A DNA stretch of 64,000 nucleotides from contig SVRJ01000001.1 of NCBI GenBank assembly GCA_015064885.1, positions 33,945 to 97,944 of the forward strand, given 5' to 3'. The position numbers and the translations under genes are program-made. Of the stretch, positions 13,145 to 57,043 are shown in pieces (the first letter of the stretch is position 1; each line of letters starts with the position of its first letter). The notes under the pieces are model-generated. The model did not search any database and was not told the origin of the DNA. It saw only the letters and a program-made list of their open reading frames with translations. The DNA comes from Oscillospiraceae bacterium. Lineage in GTDB: Bacteria; Bacillota; Clostridia; Oscillospirales; CAG-272.

Positions 13145-13266
13145 TAAAAAAGTCCCCTTTTTCGGAGGGGACTTAAAAATTCTCATCCTCCGGGATTAGC
13201 ACCTTACTTAATGCAGGTTGCCGTGGTTTCGGTAAGCCGGTCTCTCCGCCACTCTTGATAAGATTA
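13145..13266 (-). promoter_or_regulatory. SAM-I (S-box) riboswitch with intrinsic terminator, leader of metK
   Basis: The reverse strand reads CTTATCAAGAGTGGCGGAGAGACCGGCTTACCGAAACCACGGCAACC...GGTGCTAATCCCGGAGGATGAGAA, matching the S-box core. It is followed by AAGTCCCCTccgaaaaAGGGGACTTTTTT. Confidence 0.9.
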
Positions 13267-16253: not shown

Positions 16254-16425
16254 CAAAAAAAGCCCGACAAAAGCCGGGGAATAAATACAGTACGCCTGTA
16301 CGCACGAATATTCATCTTTTTTCATCCGGACTCTACCGTCGGCGCAGTAATTTCAACTGCTCGGCACCTATCGGTGTTCGTGGGCTGTACCACCGGTATG
16401 GAATTTCACCAATCCCCAAAGATTT
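16254..16425 (-). promoter_or_regulatory. FMN riboswitch (RFN element) plus terminator
   Basis: The reverse strand reads GGGGATTGGTGAAATTCCATACCGGTGGTACAGCCCACGA...GCCGACGGTAGAGTCCGGATGAAAAAAGAT, then CCCGGCttttGTCGGGCTTTTTTT. Confidence 0.88.
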
Positions 16426-16432
16426 GTTACAC

Positions 16433-29343: not shown

Positions 29344-29380
29344 ATCCCTCGGTCCGCTCACAACCGAGGGATTTTTATTT
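29344..29380 (+). terminator. Intrinsic terminator of rpsT
   Basis: ATCCCTCGGtccgctcacaaCCGAGGGATTTTTATTTT. Confidence 0.7.
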
Positions 29381-29453
29381 TCCGCCGAAGCTTTGATAGT
29401 TGTATACTTTTTAAAAGTAGATTTAACAAAATGTAAATACGTAAAAAAACATC

Positions 29454-29482
29454 TTGAAATCATTCTTGATTTGTGATATAAT
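29454..29482 (+). promoter_or_regulatory. Promoter of tRNA-Val (TTGAAA-17-TGaTATAAT)
   Basis: tcTTGAAAtcattcttgatttgtgaTATAATatg; the -10 ends 10 nt before the mature tRNA 5' end. Confidence 0.6.
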
Positions 29483-29492
29483 ATGCGAGCAC

Positions 29493-29569
29493 GGAGGCAT
29501 AGCTCAGCTGGTTAGAGTACTTGCTTGACATGCAAGGGGTCATTGGTTCGATTCCAATTGTCTCCACCA
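29493..29569 (+). tRNA. tRNA-Val(GAC): tRNA-Val, anticodon GAC, genomically encoded CCA
   Basis: Hand-folded cloverleaf: acceptor GGAGGCA/TGTCTCC, D-arm AGCTCAGCTGGTTAGAGT, anticodon stem CTTGC/GCAAG with loop TTGACAT, T-arm GGTTCGATTCC, then A-CCA. Confidence 0.93.
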
Positions 29570-29571
29570 GA

Positions 29572-29612
29572 AAAAGCACACATTTGTCTACCGGACAAAT
29601 GTGTGCTTTTTT
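29572..29612 (+). terminator. Strong intrinsic terminator after tRNA-Val
   Basis: AGCACACATTTGTCtaccgGACAAATGTGTGCTTTTTT (14-bp perfect stem plus T6). Confidence 0.8.
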
Positions 29613-29617
29613 CAACT

Positions 29618-29796
29618 AAATCCGCCTTCGTCGGAATAAATCCACTATCGTGGATGAAATCTTGCTTCGCAAGGTTAAGGGAGGCGGATTTGATTTCATC
29701 TGAAGCCGAAGGCTGAAGATTTCATCCAAACTCGTTTGGATTTCATCGTGCGTAGCACGATTTCATTAAAGATGCAAGGCTACGGCTTGATTTCTT
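29618..29796 (+). repeat. Array of ~7 short, sequence-distinct ATC...GAT palindromes/hairpins joined by 3-nt linkers (junction motif GAT-TTC-ATC)
   Basis: Hairpins: 29640-29655 ATCCAC/tatc/GTGGAT; 29659-29675 ATCTTGC/ttc/GCAAGGT; 29698-29720 ATCTGAAGCC/gaa/GGCTGAAGAT; 29724-29741 ATCCAAAC/tc/GTTTGGAT; 29745-29761 ATCGTGC/gta/GCACGAT. Degenerate units lie at 29620-29636 and 29772-29791. GATTTCAT occurs at 29692, 29718, 29739 and 29759, with an inverted copy at 29653-29661. Confidence 0.6.
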
Positions 29797-29840
29797 TGTC
29801 AAAGTCCGATATAATAAATGAAAGATAGGAGGTGCCTGTA

Positions 29841-30374
29841 TTGAAGCGCGAAGATGCCTTTTACTATATGAATTTGCTGTTGCTGGGCTTTCGTGACGGC
29901 TACGACGATTGGTTGAATTATTATTTGGAGACAGAATCTCCGTTGAGCGACATTGTGTTAGAACTATCACTATGCGGTTCAGATCTAAACAAAACTGTAT
30001 CCCTTTTACACAATTACTGCGCTGAACAAAAGTTTGACGAGATTGCTTCTCATGATAAATTGCGATTGTTTTTCAAAGACGCCTATCACTCAAATAGGAT
30101 GAGTAAAGAAGAAGTGGTGTCTACTATGTACCGTCTGTCATTGAATATTGGTGACCCCAGAGATTTTGATATCAAATTATGGGGGAGTATGTACTATCTT
30201 GATTATTATTTTAGTTTAGCTGAAGATGGTATAATTCCACGGGAAAATTTTGATTTTGCCTTTTTCTCTTACTTAGATAACGGAACCCCTATTGATACTG
30301 AACTTATTTGGAAAAAACAAAACAAAAGAAAAATATCTCTGATCAATAAAATAAAGAATATGTTTAAAAGGTAA
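29841..30374 (+). CDS. Hypothetical protein, AT-rich orphan with no recognisable domain
   Basis: Open frame with AGGAGG at 29827-29832 and TTG 29841 at 8-nt spacing (the track uses GTG 29832, inside the SD). Promoter-like TTGATT (29787-92)-17-TATAAT (29810-15) lies upstream. Composition and codon use are visibly AT-richer than the flanking genes (by eye). Confidence 0.55.
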   Translation: MKREDAFYYMNLLLLGFRDGYDDWLNYYLETESPLSDIVLELSLCGSDLNKTVSLLHNYCAEQKFDEIASHDKLRLFFKDAYHSNRMSKEEVVSTMYRLSLNIGDPRDFDIKLWGSMYYLDYYFSLAEDGIIPRENFDFAFFSYLDNGTPIDTELIWKKQNKRKISLINKIKNMFKR

Positions 30375-30454
30375 TCAGATCAAAAATCCAACAAAAACAA
30401 ACACCTTTTGTTCGCAATTACCTATATGCAGACACTTCTCTTCCCGCCGCGAAA

Positions 30455-30496
30455 GAAAAATACAACCCGAGCATTTCTGCTCGGGTTGCTTTTTTA
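30455..30496. terminator. Bidirectional intrinsic terminator between the orphan gene and the ABC locus
   Basis: CAACCCGAGCatttctGCTCGGGTTG, flanked by an A-run on the left and a T-run on the right. Confidence 0.75.
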
Positions 30497-30531
30497 TTTT
30501 CAAATGCGATATGCATCTGTTTTTTGTGGTA

Positions 30532-31725
30532 TTATTCGCCTGTGATACCGCTACGCTCAATACCCTGAATAATATATCTCTGACAGAAGAGGTACATTAC
30601 TATAAGCGGAGCAATGATAAGCAAACCACTTGTGTTTCTGATAGCGGTTTCGAATACGGCCTTAACCGCGCCTGCCGTCTGAAGCGAAGCGGGGATAACG
30701 TCTACGATATCCGGCATCAGCAATACTCTGTCGGCCGGGAAGAACAACGTCGTATAGAAGTCGTCTGTCCACTGCCATGAGAATGAGAACAGGAATACGG
30801 TGATCATCATCGGAACAGACATCGGGAGAATGATCTGAAGGAATGTTCTGAAAGTACCCGAGCCGTCGATATATGCCGATTCTTCAAGAGAGTCGGGAAC
30901 ACCGCGGAAGAACTGACGCAACATAAAGATGTAAAGTCCGTTCTTAAATGCAAGTCCTGTTGCGGAAAGCATTATCATAGGAATGTAGGTGTTGATGAAG
31001 TTGGTTCCCTGCGCAAAGTTAAGAGAGAACGTCTTCGAGAACTTTATCTGGTCCGGCAACAGATTGATCTGAGCCAAAATGTCGTTGAGAGCATTGATCC
31101 AGCCTGCATTCAAAGTTTCATCTCTATGACCGAAGCTAAGGCCACCGCTGAGGAACTTGAATATTCCGAAGATATCGAAGTATCTGAAGTTCATGTAAAG
31201 CGAGAGCTGAAGCGTCGAGTGAGGGATAACCATCGTAAGGACAACTATAGCAAAGATAATACCGTTACCCTTGAATTTGAACTTTGCAAGACCGTAAGCG
31301 ATGAGACAGCATGTGAATGTCTGTATTACGGCTGTAATAAGCGAAAGTGTAAGGGTGTTCTTGAAAGCGGTCCAATAGATAGGAACTATTTTACCGTTTA
31401 TCGTATCGGTTTCTGCAAGTAGTGCCTTATAGGTATCGAGTGTGGGGTTTCTGGGGATAAGACGTACTGTGATATCAGCAAAGTCTGTTTTGCTCATTAT
31501 CGAACCTGCTATCTTCGTAATGAAGGGATAGAGGATGATGTATGCGAGACCTACGAGAAGTACAAGTCGGAAAATATAGAAGATTATCTTACCGACGAAG
31601 GCAGCTGAAACGAATTTTGCCTTAAGTCTTGTCTTGAGGTCTGTACGCTCAAAGTCAACTCTGATCTTGTTCTTGGTTTCTTTCATAACAGTGGGAGCTG
31701 TATTAAGATTTTTTGTTGAATCCAT
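30532..31725 (-). CDS. Carbohydrate-type ABC permease (MalG-like) with an N-terminal extension and enlarged extracytoplasmic loops (second pair)
   Basis: EAA-loop ESAYIDGSGTFRTFLQIILPMSVP, six or more TM helices, 397 aa (about 100 aa longer than usual), SD GAGGAGG. Confidence 0.85.
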   Translation of the reverse strand: MDSTKNLNTAPTVMKETKNKIRVDFERTDLKTRLKAKFVSAAFVGKIIFYIFRLVLLVGLAYIILYPFITKIAGSIMSKTDFADITVRLIPRNPTLDTYKALLAETDTINGKIVPIYWTAFKNTLTLSLITAVIQTFTCCLIAYGLAKFKFKGNGIIFAIVVLTMVIPHSTLQLSLYMNFRYFDIFGIFKFLSGGLSFGHRDETLNAGWINALNDILAQINLLPDQIKFSKTFSLNFAQGTNFINTYIPMIMLSATGLAFKNGLYIFMLRQFFRGVPDSLEESAYIDGSGTFRTFLQIILPMSVPMMITVFLFSFSWQWTDDFYTTLFFPADRVLLMPDIVDVIPASLQTAGAVKAVFETAIRNTSGLLIIAPLIVMYLFCQRYIIQGIERSGITGE

Positions 31726-56659: not shown

Positions 56660-57017
56660 GGCAAACCAAACCAAACGGTCGCGCGGCATAAGATCGAAAG
56701 GTAATGCCGTGAGGAAAGTCCGAGCTTCACAGGGCAGGATAACTGATAACGTCAGCCGGAGGCGACTCCCGGGCAAGTGCAACAGAAATATACCGCCGAA
56801 CTTTTTCGGTAAGGATGGAAAGGCGAGGTAAGAGCTCACCCAAAGCATAGGTAACTATGCTTTGCTGTAAACCCTATCCGAAGCAACACCGCATATGGAT
56901 CGTTCGCCCGACACATATCCATGGGTGGCACGGAGCTATGCTCCGAAGCTGTCTGGTGACAGGCAGCGAAGATAGATGACCGTTCTCGACAAAACTCGGC
57001 TTATAGGTTTGATTTGC
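56660..57017 (+). ncRNA. rnpB: RNase P RNA (bacterial, type A-like)
   Basis: GAGGAAAGTCCGAGC...CAGGGCAGG...AGTGCAACAGAAA...ACAAAACTCGGCTTATAG universal blocks. P1 pairs GCAAACCAAACC (56660-71) with GGTTTGATTTGC (57006-17). Confidence 0.9.
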
Positions 57018-57018
57018 A

Positions 57019-57043
57019 AAGCTGCCATGCGGCAGCTTTTTTT
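57019..57043 (+). terminator. Intrinsic terminator of rnpB
   Basis: AGCTGCCatgcGGCAGCTTTTTTT. Confidence 0.8.

Follow-up and report, generated by a model that had tools for sequence, protein, structure and literature searches.

What is the array of small palindromes that stands between a tRNA-Val gene and the next promoter in a genome of the Oscillospiraceae? In the 64,000-nucleotide (nt) stretch of contig SVRJ01000001.1 analysed here, which we call the window, a preliminary description made from the letters alone had noted a series of mini-palindromes framed ATC...GAT and joined by 3-nt linkers, had recognised no named family in them, and had offered three options: a structured RNA, an operator or iteron field, or the scar of a transfer RNA (tRNA)-targeted mobile element. 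We consider it very probable that the array is a copy of a widespread element, some 160-180 nt long, that comes with a 5' hairpin, belongs to the Gut-1 family (Rfam RF01706) and is bipartite in its full form. In the window the element spans positions 29571-29792, starting 2 nt past the CCA end of tRNA-Val, and consists of a symmetric terminator hairpin followed by three hairpins with GAA-type linkers and then three to four with complementary TTC-type linkers.

The Gut-1 RNA motif (RF01706) was described by Weinberg et al. in 2010 (PMC2864571) as found in the 'human gut only', in no sequenced organism and without genomic context. Its published seed alignment runs from a terminator through forward units (GUGAUAUU) to reverse units (AAUAUCAC), and one seed lies behind a tRNA (PMC2864571). 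In an E-value Rfam scan of our locus RF01706 was the sole meaningful family, scoring 27.2 bits for the left half of the array (window 29613-29683, + strand) and 40.5 bits for the right half (29714-29798, - strand), both below the gathering score of 50 bits. The nearest relative of the window copy, L302 (L-numbers denote loci compared with the window copy), is also sub-threshold at 41.6 bits, and many of the copies with the window centre pass with their left halves at 50-77 bits, among them L213 (77.3), L216 (75.8), L183 (71.4) and L189 (71.0). An nhmmer profile built from 87 non-window copies matched window positions 29611-29766 end to end with an E-value of 1.9e-40, and found no second copy within the 64-kb window. 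The Gut-1 consensus of three hairpins, with stems starting AU and ending GU and with GAA joints, is the same frame of ATC...GAT units and 3-nt linkers that had been noted in the window; the cmscan alignment, the sequence and the family alignment all give the window copy AU...GU/AU stem ends and 3-nt GAA linkers within UGAAAU. Short hairpins with such linkers, CUUCG-type pentaloops, an intrinsic terminator in front and a gut origin are shared with Gut-1. The differences are that the window copy is below threshold and one unit short, and that the Rfam model covers the left half only; the complete element has in addition a right half, in which the linkers are complementary, as well as a hairpin with tandem G.A and the closing helix P1. 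The window copy is a Gut-1 member by homology and architecture, not by curated score, and the array can no longer be said to lack a named family. Readings of the linkers as hammerhead, T-box, CsrA sponge, anticodon mimic or -10 mimic were rejected: there was no such Rfam match, and the resemblance follows trivially from the AU...AU frame.

The distribution of the element was established by scanning one-genome-per-species contigs for the centre pattern ATTTCATCTGA-N8-16-GAAGATTTCATC, taken from the stretch around hairpin R1, the most conserved part of the family; the scan is biased to this one centre motif. It returned at least 119 loci, and among the matches listed, from which all copy counts below (of 88, 102, 107, 109, 113 or 114) are drawn, all are metagenome-assembled genomes (MAGs) of gut Clostridia. 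Carriers among these matches are Oscillospiraceae, Acutalibacteraceae, 'Eubacteriales', Ruminiclostridium, Faecousia, Flemingiibacterium and Christensenellaceae, from animal-gut MAGs. Several genomes have more than one array, and some copies are in tandem. All 113 analysable copies are distinct, and where a contig has several, compensatory changes set their stems apart, which tells against a common dispersed element resembling repetitive extragenic palindromic (REP) sequences, with many near-identical copies. Only four viral contigs carry the centre pattern, which had itself been derived from three true arrays among 56 viral-contig matches to a forward-plus-reverse linker pattern. Generic linker patterns searched on viral contigs (GATGAWAT three times; forward plus reverse) were abandoned, their matches being almost all coding sequence or tandem repeats.

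Read in the direction of the tRNA, the consensus starts with CCA, 0-2 nt, a symmetric hairpin built of A-run, stem and T-run, then CAACUAAAUCC with segment X, and hairpin H1 (X:X'). The left domain continues with H2, H3 and H4, which have GAUGAAAUC between them, and then with a purine-rich spacer and segment X'' (GGCGGAUUU). The right domain opens with AUUUCAUC and contains R1 with CUGA...GAAG, R2 and R3 joined by GAUUUCAUC, and then GAUUUCAUU; it often closes with a fourth hairpin whose 3' arm carries a -35 element. The window copy holds H1, H2 and H4 but no H3, its predicted fold uses P1 rather than H1, and its fourth right hairpin, R4, has one mismatch where those of L302, L289 and L001 are perfect. 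The same unit is absent from L207 and L281; this loss of a left unit without loss of a right one in the window, L207 and L281 weakens a rung-by-rung pairing of left and right linkers, a candidate that we dropped.

At least four linker subfamilies were found, with left and right linkers GATGAAATC and GATTTCATC, GTGATATT and AATATCAC, TATATCATC and GATGATATA, and AATGATG and CATCAT, respectively. In each of them the reverse complement of the left linkers gives the right ones, and different subfamilies share one contig. Arrays with other linkers are those of L286 (after tRNA-Met), L243, L001 and L306, and of the Rfam seeds BAAZ01025322 and BAAZ01000095; arrays of the TATATCATC type were not detected by the RF01706 search at E<=0.01. 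In one subfamily (L001-type) the linker polarity is opposite to that of the Rfam seeds with the tRNA orientation unchanged. Since right linkers are reverse-complementary to left ones in every subfamily, these comparisons argue that the property maintained may be self-complementarity, or a shared inverted-duplication origin, and not recognition by one sequence-specific binding protein.

Much of what had been reported for the window itself was recovered. The repeat junction GATTTCATC occurs exactly at 29692, 29718 and 29739, with measured spacings of 26, 21 and 20 nt, in a degenerate form (GATTTCTTT) at 29789 and as its reverse complement GATGAAATC at 29653-61; the copy reported at 29759 is present but reads GATTTCATT, with one mismatch. 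This 9-mer occurs five times in the window against 0.96 expected, a number reached by 0/100 shuffles. The palindromes with differing cores are real but not all perfect: the ATCTTGC/GCAAGGT pair includes a U.G wobble, ATCTGAAGCC/GGCTGAAGAT includes a tandem G.A/A.G mismatch, and the first (29620-37) and last (29775-89) hairpins have one mismatch each. The two long-range complements, AAATCCGCCT (29618-27) with AGGCGGATTT (29682-91) and 29653-61 with 29692-700, are both there, and they do cross. Folding of the window array gave -64.6 kcal/mol (z -3.75) on the + strand and -52.4 kcal/mol (z -3.2) on the - strand, both better than shuffles, with the + strand better by 12 kcal/mol. Perfect hairpins number 4 against 1.1 expected, which is mildly unusual (25/2000 shuffles reach 4). 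Folds and 9-mer count exceed shuffled sequences, and the hairpin count does so mildly; the strong evidence against chance is comparative. A terminator scan called no array hairpin within 29620-29789 terminator-like, its single match being the rpsT terminator on the - strand, and the array hairpins are flanked 3' by UUC or GAA, not by a run of at least five U.

The comparative evidence comes from an alignment of 88 sequences, in which 47 pairs were tested against 500 shuffles; H4 was left out because MAFFT placed its columns inconsistently. Paired cells made up 88.6% (80.2% when shuffled), 372 cells were changed on both sides (124 when shuffled), and the covariation score was 0.236 (0.102 when shuffled), each value being reached by 0/500 shuffles; slid controls scored 0.03-0.05. 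Weaker measures were the 20 pairs with change on both sides (reached by 30/500 shuffles) and 56 further pair types (26/500). Linker-anchored counts, which are independent of the alignment, agree with this covariation of the Gut-1 stems: variable stem positions use three to four Watson-Crick types and are 92-98% paired. P1 (X:X'') covaries as GC66/AU21, CG66/UA18 and CG36/UA22, and these changes in X recur in the covariation of H1 (X:X'). H1 and P1 are mutually exclusive alternatives. The remark that palindromy is preserved while the sequence varies, made from a single locus, holds across the family, and the element is maintained for base pairing.

Some of these pairs also carry strand information. 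At the second pair of the left-half hairpins U.G is found in 51/323 cases and C.A in none. R1 has tandem G.A/A.G in 114/114 copies, with inner pairs GC68/AT34, and R2 has it in 46/108, where it is interchangeable with Watson-Crick pairs. The U.G and tandem G.A pairs all lie on the tRNA-sense strand; the opposite strand would carry C.U mismatches at the tandem G.A. G.U is otherwise rare, with 57 against 21 A.C among about 4600 pairs, or about 1% outside H1. The strand information is limited but consistent, and it points to the tRNA-sense strand.

The array is linked to the 3' ends of tRNA and transfer-messenger RNA (tmRNA) genes, without a promoter of its own. A same-strand tRNA, with 20 anticodons represented, stands directly upstream of 58/109 copies; for 14/109 the tRNA is 150-300 nt upstream, usually with another array between. 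The upstream neighbour is a tmRNA in 4-6/109 copies, a tandem copy in 4/109 and something else in 23/109, and none of the 109 copies has an opposite-strand tRNA beside it. CCA lies 0-2 nt ahead of the hairpin in 82/109 copies, and in about 75-80% of copies the start follows, at a distance of 0-2 nt, the CCA of a tRNA, tmRNA or tRNA fragment on the same strand. In the loci fetched, an array of one subfamily or another stands behind 64/78 operon-terminal tRNAs, and 26/83 CCA-type copies are solitary promoter-tRNA-hairpin-array units. The 5' hairpin belongs with the array, not with the tRNA: the hairpin of the window copy stands behind tRNA-His in L302, and identical hairpin sequences stand behind different stable-RNA genes (tRNAs, tmRNA) in different genomes. 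It is symmetric, with an A-run of at least 4 nt and a mirroring T-run in 102/107 copies, and its U-tracts are short (6 T in 64, 5 T in 26 and 4 T in 13 copies). In nearly all copies this hairpin is a perfect palindrome framed G-A(n)...T(n)-C, an enlarged likeness of the AUC...GAU units.

Promoters were sought on both sides of the array. A + strand promoter follows it in 35/102 copies, with the -35 overlapping the element end in 13; in the window, the -35 TTGATT (29787-92) that had been pointed out was recovered by the promoter scan, with its -10 TATAAT. A - strand promoter to the right of the array was found in 10/102 copies at scattered positions and at no consistent one, and a - strand small RNA (sRNA) with a promoter of its own was rejected on this count. 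Among copies without a tRNA, a promoter directly ahead of the 5' hairpin was found in 3/20 only. The parts of the window copy and its immediate neighbours are collected in Table 1.

Table 1. Parts of the Gut-1 array in the window and of the genes on either side of it.
Feature	Position	Strand	Basis
tRNA-Val(GAC), encoded CCA end	29493..29569	+	ARAGORN; Rfam tRNA 68.2 bits
Symmetric bidirectional-type terminator hairpin: A-run, 18-bp stem, 5-nt loop, T-run	29571..29611	+	inverted repeat, 100% complementary
Segment X (AAATCCGCCT), 5' strand of closing helix P1; alternatively of weak hairpin H1	29618..29627	+	inverted repeat, minimum-free-energy fold, P1 covariation
H1: ATCCGCC-TTC-GTCGGAAT, imperfect (C.T mismatch), competes with P1 for segment X	29620..29637	+	sequence, family counts
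H2: ATCCAC-TATC-GTGGAT	29640..29655	+	sequence, fold, covarying positions in family
GAA linker within GATGAAATC (29653-61); junction where one unit is missing	29656..29658	+	inverted repeat, L302 comparison
H4: ATCTTGC-TTC-GCAAGGT, U.G wobble at second pair	29659..29675	+	sequence, fold
Segment X'' (AGGCGGATTT), 3' strand of P1, which closes the left domain	29682..29691	+	inverted repeat, fold, covariation
R1: ATCT-GA-AGCC-GAA-GGCT-GA-AGAT, tandem G.A/A.G and covarying inner stem	29698..29720	+	family counts
R2: ATCCAAAC-TC-GTTTGGAT, TTC linkers at 29721-23 and 29742-44	29724..29741	+	inverted repeat, fold, family counts
R3: ATCGTGC-GTA-GCACGAT and terminal motif TTCATT; conserved core ends here	29745..29767	+	sequence, fold, family alignment
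R4: promoter-proximal CAAGGC-TAC-GGCTTG, 3' arm holds -35 TTGATT	29775..29792	+	promoter scan, relatives
Sigma-70-type promoter of downstream gene: TTGATT, 17 nt, TATAAT	29787..29815	+	promoter scan
177-amino-acid conserved hypothetical protein, TTG start, AGGAGG ribosome-binding site	29841..30374	+	homologue search, block comparison

The window also holds an S-adenosylmethionine (SAM) riboswitch (13180-13264, - strand), a flavin mononucleotide (FMN) riboswitch (16310-16427, - strand) and a class A RNase P RNA (56663-57019, + strand); no array stands behind the RNase P RNA gene.

Comparison of close relatives shows that the surroundings of the array change while the unit itself persists. L302 matches window 29538-30558 at 96% nucleotide identity, with an encoded protein 98% identical; hairpin, array, promoter, gene and the downstream ATP-binding cassette (ABC)-transporter flank are the same in L302 but stand behind tRNA-Arg(TCT) and tRNA-His(GTG). 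The window has rpsT and tRNA-Val on that side, and the breakpoint falls exactly at CCA|GAAAAA (L302 1-140 compared with window 29380-29570). It had been suggested that the tRNA-Val 3' flank of relatives would tell whether array and gene travel together; hairpin, array and gene are indeed kept together in this relative, but behind tRNA-His. L302 (215-245) keeps a hairpin unit, ATCGCTACGCGATGAA, that is missing at window 29653-29661, and to judge from the two sequences the window copy has lost exactly this one unit, by clean deletion between GATGAAATC linker repeats. A second, related block, of about 900 nt and with TATATCATC/GATGATATA linkers, comprises hairpin, array, promoter, a homologue of the 177-amino-acid protein and about 75 nt more. 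It stands behind tRNA-Trp in L001, behind a 3' end ...CCGCCA in L306 that is tmRNA-like by eye (Rfam made no tmRNA call at E<=0.01), and between other flanks again in L002 and L305. Array-gene-array-gene arrangements are seen in L193 and L272. The array flanks, with their variable small genes, are breakpoints of recent rearrangements.

Signs of site-specific integration were looked for around the arrays. An att-like repeat of the tRNA 3' end downstream was not found, the cognate score being 17.6 against 16.5 for non-cognate controls, and downstream matches of at least 12 nt to the tRNA 3' end, in either orientation, gave no general signal (5/48 loci compared with 3/257 controls). Single loci do hold such strings: in L001 (3625-3645) the 3' end of tRNA-Trp recurs as an inverted 16-nt copy (TGGCAGGGGCAGAAGG) just past a terminator, about 100 nt downstream of the 177-amino-acid gene. 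L196, L272 and L281 have matches of 12-13 nt in reverse orientation some 980-1090 nt downstream, and L271 has one of 10 nt, under the 12-nt cut-off. On L144, a prophage contig from IMG/VR, an open reading frame (ORF) for Phage_integrase (PF00589, E 7e-16) comes first, then the 3' part of a tRNA gene (T arm, acceptor strand, CCA), then hairpin and array. Here a prophage has integrated into an array-flanked tRNA gene, and the array is native chromosomal flank, not phage. The integrase, the sole one seen, is a prophage gene upstream of the array. A phage origin of the array was rejected, with four viral-contig matches only and the L144 array being host flank. As for the proposed scar of a tRNA-targeted element, the exact start at the CCA of different tRNAs agrees with it, but no att-like direct repeat was found, and the array copies found in one genome are old, keep their structure and are therefore not scars.

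The gene downstream of the window array had been called an orphan, yet its 177-amino-acid product has 143 homologues (E<=1e-3) in Clostridia/Oscillospiraceae MAGs; it has no Pfam match. The homologues occur in varied contexts, some without an array or without a tRNA. The gene is cargo-like, forming one block with hairpin and array behind different stable-RNA genes. It is again found just 3' of a tRNA in L001 (tRNA-Trp), L004 and L005 (tRNA-Arg, without an array), with a DUF4275 neighbour in two. Among first downstream ORFs, 24/69 encode PF05635 proteins of 115-118 amino acids (23S rRNA intervening sequence (IVS)/four-helix-bundle, Avd-like), and the rest are singletons, many of them small. The PF05635 genes start about 50 nt past the array, behind at least eight different tRNAs (L193, L196, L202, L214, L217, L246, L255, L271, L281, L294 and others), and the -35 TTGAC of their promoter overlaps the array-terminal GATTTCATTGAC. 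The downstream gene is on the opposite strand in 21/72 copies. Two conserved modules recur in the right flanks of L185, L188, L201, L272 and L279 (tRNA-Gln copies) and of L187, L194, L277, L287 and L299: one is ...GGGTCTGTAGACAGATTCGAACCGGCGAAA..GGTTGAAATGTTTACAAAATTGTGGTATAAT, the other ...GAGTTCGAATTCATACGCAAAAACAGCAAAAATATCTTTTTT; both contain T-arm-like TTCGAA strings, and neither is a tRNA gene.

How, then, might such an element act? Our tentative preference, to which we give a little less than an even chance, is that the array works as a single strand, folded and of tRNA-sense polarity, likeliest an RNA read through from the tRNA or tmRNA promoter, whose transcription, processing and role we infer. 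Polymerase coming from that promoter, a very strong one in the case of a tRNA, would pass the 5' hairpin, with its short U-tract of 4-6 U, and make a sense RNA of the array; this RNA would be a tRNA-linked 3' trailer, possibly freed by tRNA 3' processing, and the 5' hairpin and the compact hairpin array could confer resistance to nucleases. The left domain has three to four AUC...GAU-framed hairpins with GAA joints, closed by the long-range helix P1 (AAAUCCGCC with GGCGGAUUU), and the right domain three to four hairpins with UUC joints, the first with the invariant tandem G.A. For segment X both X' and X'' are available as partners, giving two alternative folds. The conserved AUGAAAU and AUUUCAU linkers may be the working surface, either for tertiary contacts between the domains or as a platform for a ligand or protein.

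Of the three options put forward at the outset, the structured RNA is the best supported, by the covariation, by the U.G and tandem G.A pairs on the + strand and by the tRNA or tmRNA on the same strand. Several observations weigh against it. A canonical symmetric intrinsic terminator stands ahead of every copy, tandem copies included, so that sense RNA may be scarce. A dedicated promoter was found on neither strand, and no terminator consistently behind the array. G.U pairs are rare overall and little commoner than A.C, and near-perfect DNA palindromes suit a role at the DNA level just as well; in single-stranded DNA, too, tandem G.A and G.T pairs are stable. Rfam places the right half on the opposite strand, and in the library searched, the literature on the function of Gut-1 or PF05635 held nothing beyond the 2010 description.

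The main rival, which we think rather unlikely, takes up the DNA-level role: the hairpins would fold in single-stranded DNA such as the lagging-strand template and serve as a structure-specific recombination or mobility module, similar to REP sequences and bacterial interspersed mosaic elements (BIMEs) or to integron attC sites, that anchors small gene cassettes with promoters of their own behind tRNA and tmRNA genes. Stems that are almost pure Watson-Crick palindromes with very few G.U suit it, as does the fact that each copy brings its own hairpin, usually with a CCA or CAG junction, and that the same hairpin recurs behind different tRNAs and tmRNA across genomes. The rearrangements described above point the same way: the hairpin-array-gene unit of L302 behind tRNA-His instead of tRNA-Val, with its breakpoint exact at CCA|GAAAAA; the differing flanks of the 900-nt block in L001, L306, L002 and L305; the array-gene-array-gene order in L193 and L272; the clean one-unit deletions (window compared with L302; L207, L281); and the diverse accessory genes downstream, 24/69 of them PF05635. 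However, no recombinase or transposase is consistently nearby, the search for an att-like tRNA 3'-end repeat downstream was negative (17.6 against 16.5; 5/48 against 3/257), and the L144 array is the native chromosomal flank of a prophage. Copies on one contig differ by compensatory changes and are therefore old paralogues, not recent transposition products; copies at one tRNA, such as tRNA-Trp, are conserved across species; and homologous recombination between dispersed repeats could explain the rearrangements. We regard as improbable the more specific proposal that arrays are folded single-strand, attC-like recombination or anchoring sites at which cassettes would be exchanged at tRNA and tmRNA CCA ends in Oscillospirales, shuffling small, promoter-bearing accessory genes (PF05635 four-helix-bundle, immunity-like, 177-amino-acid family) from one stable-RNA locus to another.

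The opposite-strand placement of the right half by Rfam could instead reflect two convergent Gut-1 sRNAs, the left half read on the + strand (27.2 bits) and the right half on the - strand (40.5 bits), both with GAUGAAAUC linkers. The halves would then share their linker and CUUCG/CUACG-type loops, the symmetric terminator could stop a - strand transcript, and three right-half ACC...GAT variants would be U.G on the - strand. We think this very unlikely: the tandem G.A of R1 (and of R2 in 46/108) would become a C.U/U.C mismatch on that strand, the promoters to the right of the array are few and scattered (10/102), a - strand RNA must cross the left half before it reaches the terminator, and the L001-type arrays have opposite linker polarity in the same tRNA orientation. 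That reversed polarity also tells against a fail-safe terminator or insulator, whose hairpins would stop or destabilise transcripts escaping the tRNA terminator in either direction. Such a function would fit an element placed just past the terminator of a very highly transcribed gene, often just ahead of the next promoter, and pseudo-symmetric, so that polymerase, whichever side it enters from, encounters hairpins with AUUUCAU behind them in the second half; but hairpins followed by only three U are poor intrinsic terminators, and the conserved 9-nt linkers, P1, the tandem G.A and the three-way covariation of X, X' and X'' are not needed for it, which makes it similarly hard to credit. Most doubtful of all is the operator or iteron field of the preliminary description, in which a dimeric DNA-binding protein would bind 9-bp motifs about two helical turns apart and regulate the downstream promoter. 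The motifs do form two inverted blocks with spacings of 20-26 bp, the -35 overlaps with the last unit, and in 13/102 copies the -35 starts 1 nt before the element end. Compensatory changes, however, keep the spacers palindromic, which is needless for double-stranded binding; at least four linker subfamilies exist, some sharing one contig; a same-strand downstream promoter is present in 35/102 copies only, and the next gene is on the opposite strand in 21/72; and there is no linked regulator gene, the downstream genes being mutually unrelated.

For Gut-1, an orphan motif in Rfam since 2010, the comparison supplies hosts, namely uncultured Clostridia of the gut, from the Oscillospiraceae, the Acutalibacteraceae and related groups. 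This host clade, the linkage to tRNA and tmRNA genes, and the full-length layout in two parts, which includes P1 and the G.A hairpin, appear to be new with respect to what was described in 2010. The published model represents only half of the bipartite element, and the copies collected here supply sequences for a better covariance model. With its arrays welded to the 3' CCA ends of tRNAs and tmRNAs, always in the sense direction, the orphan motif now poses testable questions, whether it is a trailer RNA or a structure-specific recombination site.

Several known systems resemble the array in part. The marks of a tRNA-integrated island, a direct repeat of the tRNA 3' end at the far end and an integrase inside, were not found with the arrays. 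REP/BIME elements of Enterobacteria are extragenic palindromic units of alternating orientation that lie after the 3' ends of transcription units, number many per genome and serve as recombination substrates. The array is likewise extragenic, modular and placed behind 3' ends, with left and right blocks that have inverted linkers; REP stems, however, are near-identical within a genome whereas array stems all differ and are kept by compensatory change, no RAYT gene was seen near arrays, and the tie to tRNA/tmRNA CCA ends is specific to the array element. The attC site of integrons is one long imperfect hairpin with extrahelical bases, and it accompanies promoterless cassettes and an intI/attI platform. 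Arrays share with it a structure kept over sequence, inverted conserved boxes around a variable part, a strand-specific fold and adjoining small, diverse, cassette-like genes, but they consist of 6-8 mini-hairpins, their cargo genes have promoters of their own, and no integrase is linked. A precedent for an RNA-level role is 3'ETS-leuZ of E. coli, an sRNA from the 3' external transcribed spacer of a tRNA, located before the operon terminator, which base-pairs with other sRNAs. The array differs in lying past a terminator-like hairpin; the likeness is that, as we propose for the array, a functional sense RNA would come from the 3' trailer of a tRNA unit.

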